A DNA stretch of 64,000 nt, taken from IMG/VR virus record IMGVR_UViG_3300022752_000014. One strand, written 5' to 3'. This document shows, one piece after another, positions 44,666 to 52,582 of this stretch. The translations under genes were made by a program, and so were the position numbers. This stretch comes from a virus. Its lineage: Duplodnaviria; Caudoviricetes. The notes beneath the pieces were generated by a model that was not told the origin of the DNA, ran no database searches, and worked only from the letters and a program-made list of their open reading frames with translations. How positions within the stretch are numbered: position 1 is the first letter of the stretch; each line of letters opens with the position of its first letter.

Positions 44666-46959
44666 GCAACGGAACCAAAGTTAAAAAGCGTGATGGACGT
44701 ATTGAGTCTCTTGACCTAGAGAAAATGCATTTAATGGTCGAAGAGGCGTGTAAAGGTCTTGCAGGCGTCTCTGCGAGTCAAGTAGAAATGAAGTCTGGTA
44801 TTCAATTTTATGACGGCATTACAACTGCAGAGATTCAGGAGATTCTAATTCGTTCTGCTTCTGACCTGATTGATCTGGACCATCCCAATTATCAATTCGT
44901 TGCTGCTCGTCTGCTCCTTTTTGCTGTTCGTAAGCAACTTTATGGGAAGATGAAGGAACTTCCTCATCTTGAACAGCATATTTACACCTGCACAAACATT
45001 GATGTATATGATAAAGACATCTTTGCAAAATATTCACGAGAAGAAATTGATAAAGCTAATTCGTTTATTGATCATGATCGTGACTATCTGTTCACTTATG
45101 CGGGTCTACGTCAAGTCGTTGACAAGTATCTTGTGCAGGACAGGAGTAATGGTGGAGTATATGAAACTCCACAGTTCATGTATATGATGATTGCGCTGAC
45201 TATCTTTGCAGAATATCCCAAAGAAACCAGAATGTCATACGTCAGGAGGTACTATGACGCAATCTCCAAGCACAAAATCAACATTCCAACTCCCATCATG
45301 GCAGGAGTGCGGACACCACTGCGACAATTTGCTAGTTGTGTTCTTGTTGATGTTGATGACACCCTCGATAGCATCGGTAGTAGCGACTTGGCTATTATGC
45401 GCTATGTTGCTCAAAGGGCGGGAATCGGTATCAACGCAGGCAGAATCCGTGGTATCAATAGCAAAATCAGAGGCGGAGAAGTTGCTCATACTGGGGTTAT
45501 CCCATTCCTCAAGAAGTTTGAAGCAACTGTGCGATGCTGTACACAGAATGGCATCAGAGGTGGAAGCGCAACGGTCCACTTCCCAATCTGGCACCAAGAA
45601 ATAGAAGATATTCTTGTTCTTAAAAATAACAAGGGTACGGAAGATAACCGCGTCCGTAAACTTGACTACTCAATTCAAATTAGCAAGTTGTTCTATGAAA
45701 GATTTATTCAAGACGGTGAGATCACACTTTTCTCTCCGCACGATGTCCCTGGACTTTATGATAGCTTTGGACTCCCTGAGTTTGACGCTCTCTACGTACA
45801 ATATGAAAAAGATCCGTCCGTTAAGAAAAAAACTCTTAAGGCGCAAGAACTCATCCTTAACCTTCTTAAGGAACGTGCGGAGACGGGTCGCGTCTACATT
45901 ATGAACATTGACCATTGCAACTCTCACTCCTCATTTAAAGATAAGGTGAATATGTCTAATCTCTGTCAAGAGATTACTCTACCAACCTATCCCATCAATC
46001 ATATTGATGATAAGTTTGGTGAGATTGCATTGTGTATTCTTTCTGCTATTAACGTTGGAAAGGTAAAGTCTGATGAAGAACTTGAGGAACTTTGTGATCT
46101 GTCTGTTCGTGGACTTGATGAGTTGATTGACTATCAGAAGTACCCCGTAGAGGCAGCAGAAATCGCCACCAAGGCGCGTCGTTCCCTTGGCATAGGGTTT
46201 ATTGGTCTTGCCCATTATTTGGCAAAACTTGGATTTAATTATGATTCTCAAGAAGCATGGGATGCAGTCCATGGACTCTCAGAGTCATTCCAGTATTATC
46301 TACTGAAAGCATCCAACCAACTTGCCAAAGAAAAGGGACACTGTGAATACTTTGGTCGCACAAAGTATGCGGATAGTCTTCTTCCGATTGATACATACAA
46401 AAAAGATGTAGACGAAATCACTTCAGTTTCTTACCAACATGATTGGGAATCTCTCAGAGCGTCTATCCTGGAGCACGGGTTACGGCACTCAACACTGTCC
46501 GCACAGATGCCATCGGAGAGCAGTTCCGTTGTGTCAAACGCAACCAACGGAATCGAACCACCTCGCGGATACTTGTCCATTAAGAAGTCGAAGAAGGGAC
46601 CACTCAAGCAAATCGTTCCTCAGTATCATACCCTTAAGAACAATTACACGTTACTGTGGGATATGCCTAGCAATCGTGGGTATATCAATATTGTTGCTGT
46701 TATGCAGAAGTTCTTTGATCAGGCGATTTCTGGAAACTGGTCCTATAACCCAGAGAATTATGAGGATAATGAAGTCCCAGTGTCCGTGATGGCACAAGAC
46801 TTTCTGACTACATACAAGTATGGGTGGAAAACTTCTTACTACCAAAACACTCACGATATGAAGAATGATGAGGTAGAAGAAGAAAAACCCAAACTTCAAG
46901 ATTTGCTAAGTGAGTTAAGTTCAGTAGAGGAGGGAGAGTGTGAATCCTGTGCAGTTTAA
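44662..46959 (+). CDS. nrdA: Ribonucleotide reductase class Ia, alpha subunit
   Basis: ATP cone (VKKRDG), PTPIMAG, SCVL, SNLCQEI, AQMPSESSS. Confidence 0.98.
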   Translation: MSNGTKVKKRDGRIESLDLEKMHLMVEEACKGLAGVSASQVEMKSGIQFYDGITTAEIQEILIRSASDLIDLDHPNYQFVAARLLLFAVRKQLYGKMKELPHLEQHIYTCTNIDVYDKDIFAKYSREEIDKANSFIDHDRDYLFTYAGLRQVVDKYLVQDRSNGGVYETPQFMYMMIALTIFAEYPKETRMSYVRRYYDAISKHKINIPTPIMAGVRTPLRQFASCVLVDVDDTLDSIGSSDLAIMRYVAQRAGIGINAGRIRGINSKIRGGEVAHTGVIPFLKKFEATVRCCTQNGIRGGSATVHFPIWHQEIEDILVLKNNKGTEDNRVRKLDYSIQISKLFYERFIQDGEITLFSPHDVPGLYDSFGLPEFDALYVQYEKDPSVKKKTLKAQELILNLLKERAETGRVYIMNIDHCNSHSSFKDKVNMSNLCQEITLPTYPINHIDDKFGEIALCILSAINVGKVKSDEELEELCDLSVRGLDELIDYQKYPVEAAEIATKARRSLGIGFIGLAHYLAKLGFNYDSQEAWDAVHGLSESFQYYLLKASNQLAKEKGHCEYFGRTKYADSLLPIDTYKKDVDEITSVSYQHDWESLRASILEHGLRHSTLSAQMPSESSSVVSNATNGIEPPRGYLSIKKSKKGPLKQIVPQYHTLKNNYTLLWDMPSNRGYINIVAVMQKFFDQAISGNWSYNPENYEDNEVPVSVMAQDFLTTYKYGWKTSYYQNTHDMKNDEVEEEKPKLQDLLSELSSVEEGECESCAV

Positions 46960-48124
46960 AATTTCTTCCACAGAAGAAACCCAAATCAAAGGAATGACGG
47001 TTTTTAATACTGAAAAAGTTGATACTAAAAAACAACCAATGTTTTTTGGACAACCTCTTGGAATTCAGAGATACGATTCATACAAATATCCTGTATTTGA
47101 TAAACTAACCACTCAGCAACTTGGATACTTCTGGAGACCCGAAGAGGTGTCTCTCCAGAAGGATCGTGGAGATTATCAGACTCTTCGCCCAGAACAAAAG
47201 CATATCTATACTTCTAATTTGAAGTATCAGATTATGCTTGATTCTGTTCAAGGTCGTGGTCCTGGCATGGCATTCATTCCATACTGCTCACTTCCTGAAT
47301 TGGAAGCATGTATGGAAGTGTGGGGATTTATGGAGATGATTCATAGTCGCTCATACACTTACATCATTAAAAATGTCTATTCAGACCCCAGTGAGGTGTT
47401 TGATACTATCATCAAAGATGAGCGTATTCTGGAACGTGCTAAGACCGTTACAGAGTCTTATGATGACTTTATTCAATCAGCACAAAACTATGGAACTTCC
47501 AACGACTGGATGTTCAGACTTGAAGGAGTTCAAAACGCAAAAGAAACACTCAACGATGTCAAACGAAAACTGTACAGAGCAGTCGCAAACGTTAACATTC
47601 TTGAAGGTATTCGGTTCTACGTTAGTTTTGCTTGTAGTTTCGCCTTTGGCGAACTTAAGCTTATGGAAGGATCCGCTAAGATCATCTCTCTTATCGCAAG
47701 AGACGAAAACCAACATCTAGCCATTACTCAGAATATTCTGAACAAATGGCGTGATGGTGATGATCCAGAAATGAAGCAAATTATGAAAGAAGAGGAAGAG
47801 TGGACGTATAAAATGTTTGACCGTGCTGTAAACGAAGAAAAGAAATGGGCAGATTATCTGTTCAAAGATGGCAGCATGATTGGACTGAACGATAAACTTC
47901 TTCAACAATACGTAGAATGGATTGCAAATAGAAGACTTAAAGCAATTGGGTTAAAGCCCCAGTATGATATTTCAGCAAACAATAACCCACTTCCTTGGAC
48001 ACAGCACTGGATTTCTTCCAAAGGTCTTCAGGTTGCTCCCCAGGAAACTGAGGTAGAATCATATGTTGTAGGCGGAATTAAACAGGATGTTACCAAAAAT
48101 ACTTTCTCAGGATTCAAACTATGA
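46940..48124 (+). CDS. nrdB: Ribonucleotide reductase class Ia, beta subunit
   Basis: FWRPEEV, EMIHSRSY, EGIRFY, DENQH, APQETEVESY. Confidence 0.98.
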   Translation: MNPVQFKISSTEETQIKGMTVFNTEKVDTKKQPMFFGQPLGIQRYDSYKYPVFDKLTTQQLGYFWRPEEVSLQKDRGDYQTLRPEQKHIYTSNLKYQIMLDSVQGRGPGMAFIPYCSLPELEACMEVWGFMEMIHSRSYTYIIKNVYSDPSEVFDTIIKDERILERAKTVTESYDDFIQSAQNYGTSNDWMFRLEGVQNAKETLNDVKRKLYRAVANVNILEGIRFYVSFACSFAFGELKLMEGSAKIISLIARDENQHLAITQNILNKWRDGDDPEMKQIMKEEEEWTYKMFDRAVNEEKKWADYLFKDGSMIGLNDKLLQQYVEWIANRRLKAIGLKPQYDISANNNPLPWTQHWISSKGLQVAPQETEVESYVVGGIKQDVTKNTFSGFKL

Positions 48125-48264: not shown

Positions 48265-48426
48265 ATGTCTAAGAATTCGGTATCAAAAGAAGAACTCAAG
48301 GTCCGTGTCTTAAAACTCAAGAATCAACTTCATACAGAGCACGTTAGACACGATATGGATATGAAAGGACTTGCTCATAAATATCTGGACGAAGTGTTAC
48401 ATATTCTTGATGAGTATAGATATTGA
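48265..48426 (+). CDS. Hypothetical protein (53 aa, MSKNSVSKEELKVRV...)
   Basis: Read by hand; fills the gap and overlaps the next start. Confidence 0.55.
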   Translation: MSKNSVSKEELKVRVLKLKNQLHTEHVRHDMDMKGLAHKYLDEVLHILDEYRY

Positions 48427-48853
48427 CTATGAAAATCCTTGGACCTACGATGGAGAGGTATTTGGTTCAAGTGATATTCAAGATTATTTTGGCTTTGTAT
48501 ATCACATTCATTGCAACAAAACTAATCGTGACTATATTGGTAGAAAGTATTTCTGGAGTTTCCGCACACCAAGAGGAAAATCTAGAAAAGTTAAGTCGGA
48601 GTCTGACTGGAAAAAATACTACGGATCATGTCCAGAACTTAAGGAAGATGTAGATAAGTATGGTAGGGAGAATTTTACGCGCACTATTTTATCATTACAT
48701 AAAACAAAGGGCAAAACTAACTTTGAGGAAACGAGACAACTCTTCGCGCATAACGTCCTCACAGAGTCCCTTGACAACGGAGTGCCAAGATACTACAATA
48801 GCAACATCCTCAATAGGTACTTCCGAAAAGATTATTATGAACGCAACGACTGA
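48410..48853 (+). CDS. GIY-YIG family nuclease
   Basis: GFVYHIHCNKTNRDYIGRK, then conserved E and YN. Confidence 0.75.
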   Translation: MSIDIDYENPWTYDGEVFGSSDIQDYFGFVYHIHCNKTNRDYIGRKYFWSFRTPRGKSRKVKSESDWKKYYGSCPELKEDVDKYGRENFTRTILSLHKTKGKTNFEETRQLFAHNVLTESLDNGVPRYYNSNILNRYFRKDYYERND

Positions 48854-49010
48854 AGATATCGTCGCGCATGTGAGGGAGTGGTCCCTTGACCGTGCTGCAG
48901 ATATGAGTATTCCAAAAGAGGATGCCCGTGCTATTCTTGCTGAGTTCTATGAATGGATTGAACCAGAAGGTGACGAATTAGAAATTGTCTCTCTAGACCC
49001 AGAATCTTGA
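48837..49010 (+). CDS. Hypothetical protein (57 aa)
   Basis: MNATTEDIVAHVREWS...; overlaps the GIY-YIG stop. Confidence 0.6.
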   Translation: MNATTEDIVAHVREWSLDRAADMSIPKEDARAILAEFYEWIEPEGDELEIVSLDPES

Positions 49011-49035
49011 CAAAATCTAAATAAAAACTTATAAT
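49007..49035 (+). promoter_or_regulatory. Nested sigma70 and late promoters for the lysozyme leader
   Basis: TTGACA-N17-TATAAT with TAAATA (49018) inside the spacer. Confidence 0.75.
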
Positions 49036-49041
49036 GCTAAT

Positions 49042-49160
49042 AACCCACTGAAAGGTGGGTTTTCTCGTAATGAGACTTTGATTTGATTTAGAGCCGTGGG
49101 GTCTGCCCTCTGAGAAGAGGGAAGTGCGCTTTCCCTATACGGATGTAGAGTTCAATTAAA
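49042..49160 (+). ncRNA. Structured 5' leader of the lysozyme gene
   Basis: Two hairpins, then a three-way junction (CCGT/ACGG, CCCTCT-GAGA-AGAGGG). Confidence 0.5.
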
Positions 49161-49164
49161 ACTA

Positions 49165-49800
49165 GTGCAAAATTTCTTTACAGTAGCCCTGCCTCTTCTG
49201 GCAACGGTTACAACCAATGTGGCAACACTGCCGATATTTCCTCCTTTGACGGCACCTCCAGTGCCCTTCTCAATCATTAAGGAGTTTGAAACACCGACAG
49301 CGACCAAAGAGGTTGCTCCCGCTGAAAAGCCAAAAGAGAAAAGGCTAATTTGTAAAGGGTGTAATGAACATGAGAATGCTACCCTGGCATTTTTCCAGGA
49401 TCGTGGTATTAAAGACAGAAACGCCCTTGCTACTATCATGGGCAACATTAGGCAAGAGTCTACTTTTGTTCCTAATGTTTGTGAAGGTGGTAGCAGGACC
49501 AGTTACTATAACTGCTACGGCGGTTATGGACTGATCCAATGGACATCTGCCAACAGATATTATGGATTGGGTGATTTTGCTAAGAAGATTGGTGGTTCTC
49601 CATCAGATCTTCACACGCAACTTCGTTATCTCACGAATGAAGTTCAATGGCAACGTATTGAGGACAGGATGAAAATTCCTGGCAAGTCTATCAATCGTTA
49701 CATGGACTATGCGTATAGTTGGATTGGTTGGGGGCATCATGGTGCCCGCACTTCGTATGCTCATGAGTATGCTTCCAAACTGATCACGGTAGAAGTTTGA
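49165..49800 (+). CDS. Phage tail-type lysozyme (Phage_lysozyme2-like) with N-terminal signal-like peptide
   Basis: ATIMGNIRQES, GYGLIQWT, TQLRYL; hydrophobic N-terminus; GTG start. Confidence 0.75.
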   Translation: MQNFFTVALPLLATVTTNVATLPIFPPLTAPPVPFSIIKEFETPTATKEVAPAEKPKEKRLICKGCNEHENATLAFFQDRGIKDRNALATIMGNIRQESTFVPNVCEGGSRTSYYNCYGGYGLIQWTSANRYYGLGDFAKKIGGSPSDLHTQLRYLTNEVQWQRIEDRMKIPGKSINRYMDYAYSWIGWGHHGARTSYAHEYASKLITVEV

Positions 49801-49822
49801 TACAATTAAATACAAAATAAAA

Positions 49823-49857
49823 TAAATATAGGGGAGTGCTGCAGACCTCCCCTTTTT
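49823..49857 (+). terminator. Late promoter plus terminator cassette (copy 1)
   Basis: TAAATA, then AGGGGAG..CTCCCCT TTTT. Confidence 0.75.
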
Positions 49858-49863
49858 AGTAGA

Positions 49864-51474
49864 ATGAAAACGTTTAAAGAATTTATAATTGAATCTAATC
49901 AATGTATAATTAATTCCATTCTTTTTTTATGTGAAGGTGATTATAGTGATGAGGACGCTTTTAGAAAAATATGGAATCATTTTATAACTCATAAAAAATA
50001 TGGTTCTGAACTTAGACAACTTCTTCGTGCTAAAGATTTTAATGGTGCTAAAAAATATATGGAAAGTGAAGTTGAAAGTGCTAGAAATAATCCCAATCAT
50101 CCATTAAGTTTTGAAAAGGCAAAAAGAGGTTTTAAGGGAGGAAAAACTTCCGGAGATATAGATTCATATTTTAATATGATGAAATTAGCTCCAGATAGCG
50201 TCACTGCATTCGTTAAAGGACGTAGAGGTTCTAATACTTCAGATAGGGTTGGAGTTTATGCAAGAGTTTCGGGTGGGGCAAAACCGCCAACTTCTTCCGA
50301 ATGGGAGAAAGAAACCGGAAAGTCATCAGATACTTCCAAAAGAGATATTGAGTTTGTTGATCCCAAAAATAGAAAATATGGTTTAGGATTGAGTTTAAAA
50401 ATGGGTAAAGGTTCTCAGACAATTTCAGCAGAACCGGATGAAGCATATGCTACTTTCCAAGCAGCAGGAAAAGAATATATTAAAAAATTAAGAAAACGAG
50501 GTGCATCAAGAGAAGAAATTGATGCCTTTCAATCTCAATTGAACAAAACATCACAACAGGTGCGTAAATCATTGGGATTTACCTCACCTCAAATGACACC
50601 AAAGGTAAATAAAGAACTTTCTGATAGAAGACTTTCTTTAGCGCAAAGAAGTATTGATAAACTCTTTGATAATCATCCAAAATTTATTTCTGATTTTGAT
50701 AAAGAAGGTGCTGAAGGTAGAGTAAAGTTTGGTAAAGGAGTATCTTCCTTACCTGACAATGAATCACCTCAGGTGCGTGCAGCAAAAGATGCTTTGCAAG
50801 TTAGGAGGGGTGAAATTGAAATATCAGGATTTAAAGCAAATAAAAATGACGATACGGACGATACTGAACATAAAAAACTTGTAAGAGGTTTATATAAAAA
50901 TCCGAAAAAAATAATCGCGGCATTAAAGTCGTCTCCATCAGGAAGTGCTCAAGAAGTTGTCACTGGAACTAATATTGATAGTAAAGGTAATATTATTTCC
51001 GGAGCAAAAAGTGTTCCTGTATCACAACGTGGCAGAACAACACCAGAAACAGGGCCTGCTGCCAGTGCTCCTAAAGGAATGACTAAAGATCCTAATGTTT
51101 CTAGACCCGCGAATGTCAAGTTAAGAGTTTCTGGATCGCAAGAACCAGTTTCTAGACAATCTTCTTTTGCCGCTTTTTCTCAACAAGCATCTCAACAACA
51201 AATTCCCCCACCACCACAACCAACACAACCAGTTGTCCCTAAAGGTATAAAATTACAACACATAGGTAATTTCATCAGAAATCAAGCAGCGCAGCAAGCA
51301 CATCAAACAAGACTTCAACAAGCACAAGCACAAGCAGCAACACAACAACCTCAACCTCAGACCACACAACCTCAACCAACACAGCAACAAACTCCACCAC
51401 CAGACCAACAGAATCAAAGAAAGAAAAGAATACAACCACAACAACCTGTTCTAGCTACACCAATTACACAATAA
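49864..51474 (+). CDS. Late protein with capsid-targeting-like N-terminus (MKTFKEFIIES), possible PD-(D/E)XK domain and Q/P-rich tail
   Basis: SKRDIEF..LSLKMGKGSQ; low-complexity C-terminus. Confidence 0.65.
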   Translation: MKTFKEFIIESNQCIINSILFLCEGDYSDEDAFRKIWNHFITHKKYGSELRQLLRAKDFNGAKKYMESEVESARNNPNHPLSFEKAKRGFKGGKTSGDIDSYFNMMKLAPDSVTAFVKGRRGSNTSDRVGVYARVSGGAKPPTSSEWEKETGKSSDTSKRDIEFVDPKNRKYGLGLSLKMGKGSQTISAEPDEAYATFQAAGKEYIKKLRKRGASREEIDAFQSQLNKTSQQVRKSLGFTSPQMTPKVNKELSDRRLSLAQRSIDKLFDNHPKFISDFDKEGAEGRVKFGKGVSSLPDNESPQVRAAKDALQVRRGEIEISGFKANKNDDTDDTEHKKLVRGLYKNPKKIIAALKSSPSGSAQEVVTGTNIDSKGNIISGAKSVPVSQRGRTTPETGPAASAPKGMTKDPNVSRPANVKLRVSGSQEPVSRQSSFAAFSQQASQQQIPPPPQPTQPVVPKGIKLQHIGNFIRNQAAQQAHQTRLQQAQAQAATQQPQPQTTQPQPTQQQTPPPDQQNQRKKRIQPQQPVLATPITQ

Positions 51475-51918: not shown

Positions 51919-51992
<74 letters not shown>

Positions 51993-51996
51993 CCTT

Positions 51997-52078
51997 GTCG
52001 ATGTGGCGGAATTGGTAGACGCGCTGGGTTTAGGTTCCAGTAGATTAATCTGTGAAGGTTCAAGTCCTTTCATCGACA
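51997..52078 (+). tRNA. tRNA-Leu (TAG)
   Basis: GTCGATG/CATCGAC, loop ttTAGgt, long variable arm. Confidence 0.92.
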
Positions 52079-52079
52079 C

Positions 52080-52108
52080 TTGACAATCATACTCAACTAC
52101 TCTATGAT
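52080..52108 (+). promoter_or_regulatory. Sigma70-type promoter inside the tRNA array
   Basis: TTGACA-N17-TATGAT. Confidence 0.7.
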
Positions 52109-52118
52109 TGTCTTATAA

Positions 52119-52189
52119 GCGGGTATGGTGTAGCGGTAACACGCCATCCTTCCAAGTTGGAATCACCGGTTCGAACCCGGTTACCCGCT
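52119..52189 (+). tRNA. tRNA-Gly (TCC)
   Basis: GCGGGTA/TACCCGC, loop ctTCCaa. Confidence 0.93.
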
Positions 52190-52277
52190 CTTGGTAGTCG
52201 TTAGGCAGATAGCCTAGAAAGACGCCAATGGGAGAAGTGATCCTGCGGGTTCGCCCAAGAGCTCTCCTTCTCCTCAT

Positions 52278-52349
52278 TCCTCCTTGGCGCAGCGGTAGCG
52301 CAGATGACTGTTAATCATTTGGTCCCTGGTTCGAATCCAGGAGGGGGAG
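52278..52349 (+). tRNA. tRNA-Asn (GTT)
   Basis: TCCTCCT/AGGGGGA, loop ctGTTaa. Confidence 0.94.
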
Positions 52350-52478
52350 TTGGAAGTACTTCGGTTCTTCCAACTATGTTCTGGGTGGAATTCCCAGCGG
52401 TTTCGTTAGAGACTGTCCTTTGTAGGTTCGATGCCTACATCTTCCTTATGGGAGATAAGAGTGGCTACTGGAAACATA
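52349..52478 (+). ncRNA. Multi-stem RNA with a tRNA-type T-arm
   Basis: cUUCGg hairpin, CTGGG/CCCAG, CGGTTTC/GAGACTG, GTAGG-TTCGATG-CCTAC, ATCTTCC/GGGAGAT, closing TATGTT/AACATA. Confidence 0.5.
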
Positions 52479-52482
52479 ACAC

Positions 52483-52554
52483 GGGCGATTAGCGCAGCGG
52501 TAGCGCAGTTGCTTTACACGCAATTGGTCGGCGGTTCGAATCCGTCATCGCCCA
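52483..52554 (+). tRNA. tRNA-Val (TAC)
   Basis: GGGCGAT/ATCGCCC, loop ttTACac. Confidence 0.95.
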
Positions 52555-52582
52555 CTTGATAAATATTTAAAAAAAGAGTATA

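Follow-up and report, generated by a model that had tools for sequence, protein, structure and literature searches.

Signal-peptide and signal-arrest-release (SAR) endolysins, such as Lys44 of the Oenococcus phage fOg44 and Lyz of P1, carry an N-terminal export segment and reach the cell wall without a canonical holin pore. T4-like cyanophages are among the most abundant viruses in water, and how their hosts are opened is poorly understood. Several of them are listed as lacking the T4 lysozyme gene e (PMC3014915), and the r genes of T4 lysis inhibition are missing from cyanophage genomes (PMC2984593). Three kinds of T4 leader are relevant here (PMC3014915). In gene e, whose leader is grouped with those of I-TevI and mobE, the Shine-Dalgarno (SD) sequence and the AUG are sequestered in a helix whose 5' arm contains the late promoter; in the split initiation sites of genes 38 and 25, a hairpin separates a true SD from a real AUG, with a folded spacing of 5-11 nt; and RegA operators are A/U-rich, unstructured sites that include the start codon. 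Two promoter arrangements have also been described: PeSL cassettes, in which a strong sigma-70-like early promoter adjoins a stable G/C stem-loop (PMC2839356, PMC4122927), and cyanophage genes of 'middle' behaviour, for which an overlap of early and late promoters has been proposed (PMC2984593). Here we analyse a 64,000-nt stretch of DNA from a T4-like cyanophage (IMG/VR record IMGVR_UViG_3300022752_000014), called the window; position 1 is its first letter and the features lie on the + strand. A gene for a murein hydrolase (49165-49800) is preceded in the window by a structured leader that probably, judging from its conservation, controls when or how much of the enzyme is made. The specific reading that we favour, tentatively and at somewhat less than an even chance, is that a hairpin clamps the leader into a two-part operator, which acts on the translation of an exported murein hydrolase.

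The centre of the leader is an irregular hairpin of 49 nt (49094-49142). Its basal helix, P1a, pairs 49094-97 with 49139-42 (CCGT/ACGG), P1b pairs 49098-102 with 49132-36, G49105 pairs with C49129, and P2 pairs 49106-11 with 49116-21 below a GAGA loop (49112-15); the 3' strand carries a bulge of A49137 and U49138 and a larger one of 7 nt (49122-28). When the sequences of relatives were anchored on an invariant 16-mer and otherwise left unaligned, P1a was seen to be exchanged from CCGT/ACGG to CCCA/TGGG, CCTA/TAGG, CCGA/TCGG, CCGG/CCGG or CCAG/CTGG, the next helix from GGGG/CCCT to GGAGA/TCTCT, GGAAAG/CTTTCT, GGGT/ACCT or GGGC/GCCT, and the apical helix from CCCTCT/AGAGGG to CCCCTT/AAGGGG, CCCATC/GATGGG and others. 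An ungapped MAFFT alignment of 40 sequences, made from sequence only (alignment A4), had 97.6% of the cells of the nested fold paired and 9 of 16 pairs changed on both sides. The same picture was obtained from 91 distinct sequences aligned to a covariance model (alignment A5), which leans towards the model: 95.7% of the cells were paired, 275 were compensated, and the covariation score was 0.494, compared to 0.181 for shuffled and at most 0.124 for slid controls. Compensatory changes were thus found in 9-10 of the 16 nested pairs, and the fold is kept with wholly different helix sequences in L354 (ATCAAC/GTTGAT), L360 (GTTGC/GCAAC), L175 and L087, whose interiors have unrelated sequences. A three-way junction had been drawn here in a preliminary description of the window. 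The structured element between CCGT and ACGG is real, but the G49105-C49129 pair covaries (GC, CG, AU), so that 49122-28 is a bulge and the element is one continuous irregular hairpin. Of the checks which that description had proposed, the search for covariation was positive in 36 and in 91 distinct sequences, and the Rfam search of 49007-49165 gave zero matches at E values of up to 10.

The hairpin interior is the least conserved part of the leader, and its length differs widely across Kyanoviridae. It measures 47 nt in the window and 21-23 nt in S-SCSM1, S-RIM8 and S-RIM4, and is reduced to about 6 nt in S-T4 and to 5 nt in L164. The largest bulge occurs as three unrelated sequence types, and the nucleotides of the GAGA loop and of a CUAU bulge are conserved among 108 unique relatives, the sample to which the counts below refer. 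Inserts of 46 and 47 nt are both common, and extensions made by gene callers give unrelated peptides; the leader is therefore non-coding. A coding role had been considered, as the frame is open from 49082 to 49158, like the tail of a SegE-like open reading frame (ORF) in S-T4, and was excluded on the same two grounds. A pseudoknot of GAACUU with GAGUUC was also rejected, being possible in the 'AACUUCUCC' subtype only. Two annotation problems are revealed by the leader. Metagenomic gene calls of 237-238 aa (P0021, P0030 and P0066) run through it and start with unrelated peptides, and the S-RIM4 gene (L206, 955-978) is annotated from the upstream in-frame AUG of the leader, which adds 7 residues.

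The two single-stranded flanks of the hairpin are fixed. The 5' half-site, UUAGAG (49088-49093), is conserved in 103-108 of the 108 relatives at each position, and its core (A/U)GAG is kept in marine relatives and in those with a downstream gene of the DPBB type described below. The 3' half-site, AUGUAGAGUUCAAU (49143-49156), is conserved in 101-108 of 108 at each position and opens with an AUG followed by UAG (49143-48); its form in S-SCSM1, S-T4, S-RIM4 and S-RIM8 is AUG-NN-GA(G/A)UUC-N-AU, and its AUG in these four phages is in frame, open and 21 nt ahead of the start codon. A variable interior between fixed flanks disfavours a ligand pocket and favours a helix that holds the two flanks together. 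No antisense partner of the 3' flank was found elsewhere in four phage genomes.

The 3' half-site is followed by an A/U-rich, variable spacer of 8 nt (7-8 nt in the family) and the start codon (49157-49167); some relatives carry CGGAGUUA in the spacer. The GTG start and the lack of an SD had been noted before and are confirmed, the codon at this position being ATG in 71 and GTG in 35 of the 108 relatives. The hairpin ends at 49142, 22 nt ahead of the start, and the start region (49151-49175) has a predicted unpaired probability of 0.6-0.8 in the 108 relatives. A helix between GUAGAG (49145-50) and CUUUAC (49176-81, codons 4-6), with the start codon in a 25-nt loop, was predicted and rejected, as the variants GUCGAG and GUAGAA are uncompensated. 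All of 114 sequences have a codon 4 that ends in C (TTC, ATC, TAC, CAC) and TTT as codon 5, which fits this pairing.

A second helix is predicted within the coding region (49183-49211; 49183-88 with 49206-11 and 49190-93 with 49200-03), with unpaired probabilities of 0.01-0.13. It lies at +19 to +47 of the gene, in the code for the hydrophobic segment. The pairing is 97.5% complete among genes of the PF18013 family, to which the hydrolase belongs; the stems do not vary, even at third codon positions, and variation is confined to loops, so that, as no covariation can be seen, the helix is neither proven nor refuted. Where the PF18013 N-terminus is divergent, a helix again occupies this place, with another sequence. 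In the DPBB genes (alignment A8), +26-34 pairs with +62-70; compensation is seen in 4 of these 9 pairs, one example being a synonymous change from GCC...AAG to GCT...AAA. The folding predictions suggest an open start window framed by structure on both sides. Special conservation of synonymous sites in the first 20 codons was considered and rejected: variation there is low (0.35 bits), yet other parts of the gene are similar. A further helix is predicted in the signal-peptide coding region of the window at 49221-49232.

The leader occurs once in the window and once in each of five related phage genomes. Among 145 unique proteins encoded downstream of it, 132 belong to PF18013 and 13 are DPBB/RlpA-like lytic transglycosylases (PF03330, E values from 1e-18 to 2e-28), and a search that started from the DPBB proteins gave 38 further loci in which the leader ends exactly at the DPBB start codon. 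Export-type N-terminal segments are predicted in all leader-borne proteins of both families, and the DPBB proteins have clean AXA signal peptides by sequence. The DPBB genes with this leader are sometimes at the same locus as the window-type lysozyme: in L135, an ORF of 392 aa, the size of nrdB and taken to be a putative nrdB, is followed a few ORFs later by the DPBB gene, which has the same orientation as the lysozyme gene of the window. One non-coding element ahead of unrelated genes of the same function is good evidence for a functional regulator of that function. The leader was not found in 151 sampled cyanobacterial genomes, in which the top candidates per genome were scored, nor in 80 bacterial contigs with a chance occurrence of the 16-mer. 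These comparisons make it a well-supported candidate RNA family, present in no catalogue searched and tied to exported murein hydrolases of cyanomyoviruses.

The 211-aa product of the window gene consists of a hydrophobic N-terminus, a Pro-rich linker and a lysozyme domain. Residues 72-204 match PF18013 (Phage_lysozyme2) with 58.9 bits (curated cut-off 28.2; E 8e-16), and the protein also matches phrog_512. The nearest solved structure is the lysozyme domain of phi29 gp13 (3csr, E 6e-4), in which GNMQSES aligns with GNIRQES of the window protein; the acidic residue of the GN(I/M)xxES motif is present, and E98 is unchanged in seven cyanophage homologues. We take the Glu of this motif to be the catalytic Glu of gp13. 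On sequence evidence, the product can be classed as a lysozyme of the phi29 gp13 type that starts with a hydrophobic stretch. The hydrophobic core that the preliminary description had pointed out is found at residues 4-15, where the highest Kyte-Doolittle mean over 12 aa is 2.17 (1.7-2.45 in relatives with clear signal peptides). The segment MQNFFTVALPLLATVTT is conserved at the protein level with synonymous changes and is therefore translated. Two earlier reservations, that the leader might not be conserved and that the true start might lie downstream of the hydrophobic segment, were not borne out: the leader, the start position and the hydrophobic segment are all conserved.

The N-terminus is predicted to be an export-type segment. 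The putative cleavage motif is NVA|T in the window, (S/T/N)xA|(S/T) in relatives, and AKA|A, SQA|I or ATA|V in the DPBB proteins; marine homologues start MLKKLLPLALAVSIPAACA|YP. The first 8 residues of the window protein contain zero K/R and thus no positively charged n-region, while S-T4, S-SCSM1, L171 and all of the DPBB proteins have 1-2 K/R there. The window protein resembles the signal-peptide and SAR endolysins as a phage muralytic enzyme with a predicted N-terminal export segment, and differs from them in its catalytic domain, which is of the phi29 gp13 or tail-lysin type (PF18013); some records call homologues virion or tail proteins. The gene family occurs in more than 400 cyanophage records and is annotated variously, from 'hypothetical' up to 'tail lysozyme' or 'virion structural protein'. 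A literature check on homologues as virion proteins found proteomic evidence neither for nor against. In S-SRM01 (L002, 385-849), a separate annotated 'lysin' gene was observed about 760 nt upstream of the leader-bearing PF18013 gene; a second muralytic gene is therefore nearby in at least this phage.

Transcription of the leader would start from a composite promoter. The sigma-70-type early promoter (49007-49035) matches the consensus in 12 of 12 positions, with TTGACA at 49007-12, a spacer of 17 nt and TATAAT at 49030-35, and the hexamer positions are kept in about 90-106 of the 108 relatives. Inside the spacer lies a late-promoter-like box, CTAAATA (49017-49023), kept as [C/A]TAAATA (C in 74, A in 31 of 108) and present in 87 of 89 recognisable promoters. 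The nesting of sigma-70 and late promoters claimed in the preliminary description is thereby borne out as far as the sequence motifs go. The late motif of cyanomyoviruses is NATAAATA (PMC2984593), which the window matches, as TCTAAATA, in 7 of 8 positions; late-promoter activity is putative. In the 'middle' genes of S-PM2 and Syn9, the late motif likewise overlaps a sigma-70-type promoter (PMC2984593), so that the nested promoters of the window are a known arrangement, with the differences that the window box is CTAAATA rather than ATAAATA and that it lies exactly within the 17-nt spacer. A small upstream ORF ends at 49010, its stop codon (49008-10) overlapping the -35 box.

Two small hairpins stand between the promoter and the main element, as had been described before. 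Hairpin 1 (49042-49065) pairs 49042-49 with 49054-61 around a GAAA loop and ends in a short U run; it is terminator-like and stands at the 5' end of the early transcript of the cassette, directly after the -10 box, although a simple terminator scan did not return it. A hairpin of at least 5 bp is present at this site in 87 of 89 relatives, in 58 distinct sequences and typically with A and T runs alongside. Hairpin 2 (49063-49075; UCUC-GUAAU-GAGA, 49063-66 with 49072-75) has only 4 bp in the window and 8-10 bp in distant DPBB-lineage relatives, right after the late motif; its loop holds a conserved YAUWAUG box. A mini-ORF at this place (ATG AGA CTT TGA, 49070-81) was considered and rejected, since about 14 of the 108 relatives have ATT or ATA in place of the ATG.

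The early promoter (49007-35) and its adjoining stable stem-loop (49042-61), set between two genes, form a cassette of the PeSL kind; other promoters with hairpins near by were found in a scan of the window. PeSL stem-loops terminate upstream transcription, and one subclass has the stem-loop just past the -10 box (PMC2839356), as is the case here. PeSLs flank accessory genes and have been linked to gene swapping (PMC2839356, PMC4122927). They nevertheless recur many times within a genome and have an SD at their end, whereas the leader of the window is single-copy, gene-specific and SD-less, and a hairpin-clamped leader is absent from the PeSL description. In several DPBB-lineage relatives (L175, L198, L106, L087 and L345-L357; 100-115 nt before the start), the late box CTAAATA was observed between the sigma-70 promoter and the leader. 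There it either directly precedes a covarying hairpin or lies in the loop of that hairpin, which has a YAUWAUGA box in its loop or interior. Late transcripts of this lineage may lack one hairpin arm, a geometry like that of gene e elsewhere in the family.

Taken with these features, the operator reading would work as follows. The region would be a self-contained expression cassette for the exported peptidoglycan hydrolase of a T4-like cyanophage (Kyanoviridae), transcribed from a promoter and stem-loop of the PeSL kind, in which a consensus host-type early promoter carries a phage late box in its spacer as in 'middle' genes. The irregular hairpin, kept in shape and not in sequence, would clamp UUAGAG on its 5' side to AUGUAGAGUUCAAU on its 3' side, and this two-part site would border, on the 5' side, a ribosome-binding window that is open, A/U-rich and SD-less and that the helix in the signal-peptide code closes on the far side. 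The site would be read by a trans-acting factor, be it an RNA-binding protein of the phage or the host or the 30S subunit itself, which would set how much of a potentially self-destructive enzyme is made, and when. Both the action on translation and the factor are inferred here. Post-transcriptional control of a secreted hydrolase, as proposed in the preliminary description, is a reasonable reading given a conserved, structured, gene-specific leader and an export-type enzyme; the particular switch mechanism that it proposed is unsupported, as set out below.

RegA is one conceivable factor. The regA gene, for the RegA translational repressor, was found in 4 of 4 relatives searched, the spacer and start can be likened to the A/U-rich, AUG-containing RegA sites of T4, and UAAAAUUAAUGC of relatives resembles the rIIB and dexA sites (PMC3014915). 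RegA sites, however, are without an adjoining conserved hairpin or GAGUUCAAU box, and the likeness is a resemblance only: it concerns the generic A/U-rich start region and not the conserved flanks. This weighs against a two-part operator, and three other points do so as well. The folding energy does not stand out from that of shuffled sequences (z = -1.45 for 49042-49200; z = -0.64 for the isolated hairpin), so that the case for structure is built on covariation. The flanks, being invariant, are unable to covary, and the role of the half-sites is argued from their conservation. Finally, many marine homologues (S-RIM2, Syn19, P-TIM40, S-SSM4, S-TIM5) are without the leader, which is therefore dispensable for the gene family.

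An extended form of the operator reading, which we consider unlikely as a whole, would make the leader a new class of phage regulatory RNA and the lysis control point of T4-like cyanophages. Through binding of a specific protein, from phage or host, to the two half-sites, translation of the Sec-exported hydrolase, whether PF18013 or RlpA-like, would be released at the right time, and the helix in the signal-peptide code would be part of the same device. A leader conserved from freshwater to marine phages and common to two unrelated enzyme families is the kind of signature that earlier led to riboswitches and protein-binding operators. It offers a target of about 80 nt for experiments in cultured phages (S-SRM01, DSL-LC02/03, S-SCSM1, S-T4 and S-RIM8) and a candidate new RNA family for Rfam.

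Alternatively, the leader might be an element of mRNA processing or stability, in which the helix (about 16 bp with Y-Y mismatches) and hairpin 1 are sites of, or barriers to, nucleases of the RNase III or RNase E type and set different half-lives for early and late transcripts, the target then being something other than translation initiation. RNase E is major in T4 mRNA decay (PMC3014915), the irregular hairpin contains internal loops, the start region is not sequestered, and hairpin 1 stands 1-3 nt from the expected early 5' end and about 13 nt inside the expected late transcript. We nevertheless give this explanation a small chance, since an interior that shrinks to 5-6 nt in L164 and S-T4 is too short for a double-strand-specific nuclease and the most conserved parts are the single-stranded flanks beside the start codon.

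Split initiation, or start-stop reinitiation, is rather improbable. The hairpin would bring the purine box GAG to AUG 49143, where ribosomes would load; in the window type, they would stop at the UAG and restart at the SD-less GTG 16 nt downstream, and in marine phages the AUG would be a plain in-frame start. An AUG does indeed stand where the hairpin ends on its 3' side in all variants observed, the most divergent ones among them, UAG follows it directly in 101 of 108 window-type sequences, and the four phages with the in-frame, open AUG 21 nt upstream include S-RIM4, which is annotated from it. Genes 38 and 25 of T4 provide a precedent (PMC3014915): there too a conserved hairpin lies between short conserved single strands near the start and does a geometric job. 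However, GAG/GUG makes a poor SD, and folding of the hairpin would place it 0 nt from the upstream AUG, which it abuts in place of the annotated start. Furthermore, about 7% of the window-type and several DPBB-lineage sequences have AUG UCG or AUG CCG, out of frame and with no stop near, and the invariance of GAGUUCAAU after the AUG is left unexplained where it is non-coding.

The two-state switch of the preliminary description is very unlikely. Here G49119-21 would pair either with C49106-08 or, as GGGAAG, with CTTTCCC, and long and short transcripts would time translation. The second helix (49118-24 with 49129-36) can be drawn, and it is 95.6% pairable in 36 distinct sequences of the 'AAGUGCG' subtype, in which P1b and the shared P2 arm vary by transitions only and both folds stay possible. 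Yet this helix shows zero compensatory changes, its variation consisting of G-C to G-U and A-U to G-U. In L065 and L133, its closing pair G49124-C49129 is broken while the nested pair G49105-C49129 is repaired, and the other subtypes (bulge UGUAC or AACUUCU) allow an alternative pairing of 2-3 bp only. The alternative fold is also the weaker one, opening of the 5' arms costing 4.9 ± 2.9 kcal/mol on average, and neither fold reaches the start region.

Gene e of T4 had been cited as the precedent for this switch. The window shares with it a wall-degrading enzyme of a T4-type phage and a leader that joins RNA structure to early and late promoters, and the late box placed just 5' of or inside an upstream hairpin in distant relatives, where late transcripts would lack one arm, speaks for some such logic there. 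The precedent fails in the window itself: instead of sequestering the start, the hairpin ends well before it in a region predicted to be open, and the late box, like the early promoter, lies ahead of all hairpins. With both promoters upstream of every structure, early and late transcripts have the same leader, and the logic of gene e is inapplicable to the window.

A feature at the DNA level is equally doubtful. The flanks would be recombination or homing sites for hydrolase swaps and the hairpin a tolerated palindromic insertion without RNA function. Two unrelated genes behind near-identical leaders, the gene order around the DPBB gene of L135, which resembles that of the window, and the hairpins that are tiny or missing in some relatives would fit such swaps, which PeSLs are known to mediate (PMC2839356); a SegE-type homing endonuclease gene lies 290 nt upstream in the window and directly abuts the leader in S-T4. 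Recombination sites, however, need no invariance across lineages with proteins only 45% identical, the many independent compensatory changes indicate selection for pairing, and the element is single-copy, always on the sense strand and at a fixed distance from the start codon. A metabolite or second-messenger riboswitch, of the sort that precedes many cell-wall hydrolase genes in bacteria (the ydaO class, which responds to c-di-AMP, has a similar gene context), could draw on the conserved nucleotides of the GAGA loop and CUAU bulge but is hardly credible and appears already largely refuted by the variable interior, as 5 to 47 nt with three unrelated bulge types leave no conserved pocket and neither Rfam nor the sampled cyanobacterial genomes gave a match.

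The nearest cultured relatives of the stretch are the Synechococcus phages DSL-LC02, DSL-LC03 and S-SRM01 (Kyanoviridae), from freshwater and estuarine sources. Upstream of the cassette, the ORF at 46940-48124 reads like a putative gene for the small subunit of ribonucleotide reductase (nrdB), and nrdB is annotated upstream of the hydrolase gene of DSL-LC03. Between this nrdB-like ORF and the cassette lies the SegE-type GIY-YIG homing endonuclease ORF (48371-48853; PF19835, E 1e-52). A similar, unannotated SegE-like ORF in S-T4 (L205, about 470-970) runs through the leader flank sequences and stops 7 nt before the lysozyme start. Direct reading of the sequence places the end of the cassette at 49822-49857, where an ATAAATA box (49822-28) is followed by a terminator, GGGGAG...CTCCCC with T5 (49831-57); Rfam gave a weak near-match below threshold for this segment. 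The box and hairpin stand ahead of an ORF of 536 aa (49864-51474) with a Gln/Pro-rich tail and no Pfam or PHROG match. Further downstream, five tRNA genes (Arg-TCT, Leu-TAG, Gly-TCC, Asn-GTT and Val-TAC) are clustered at 51919-52555, several of them directly behind sigma-70-like promoters (51882-910 and 52080-108).

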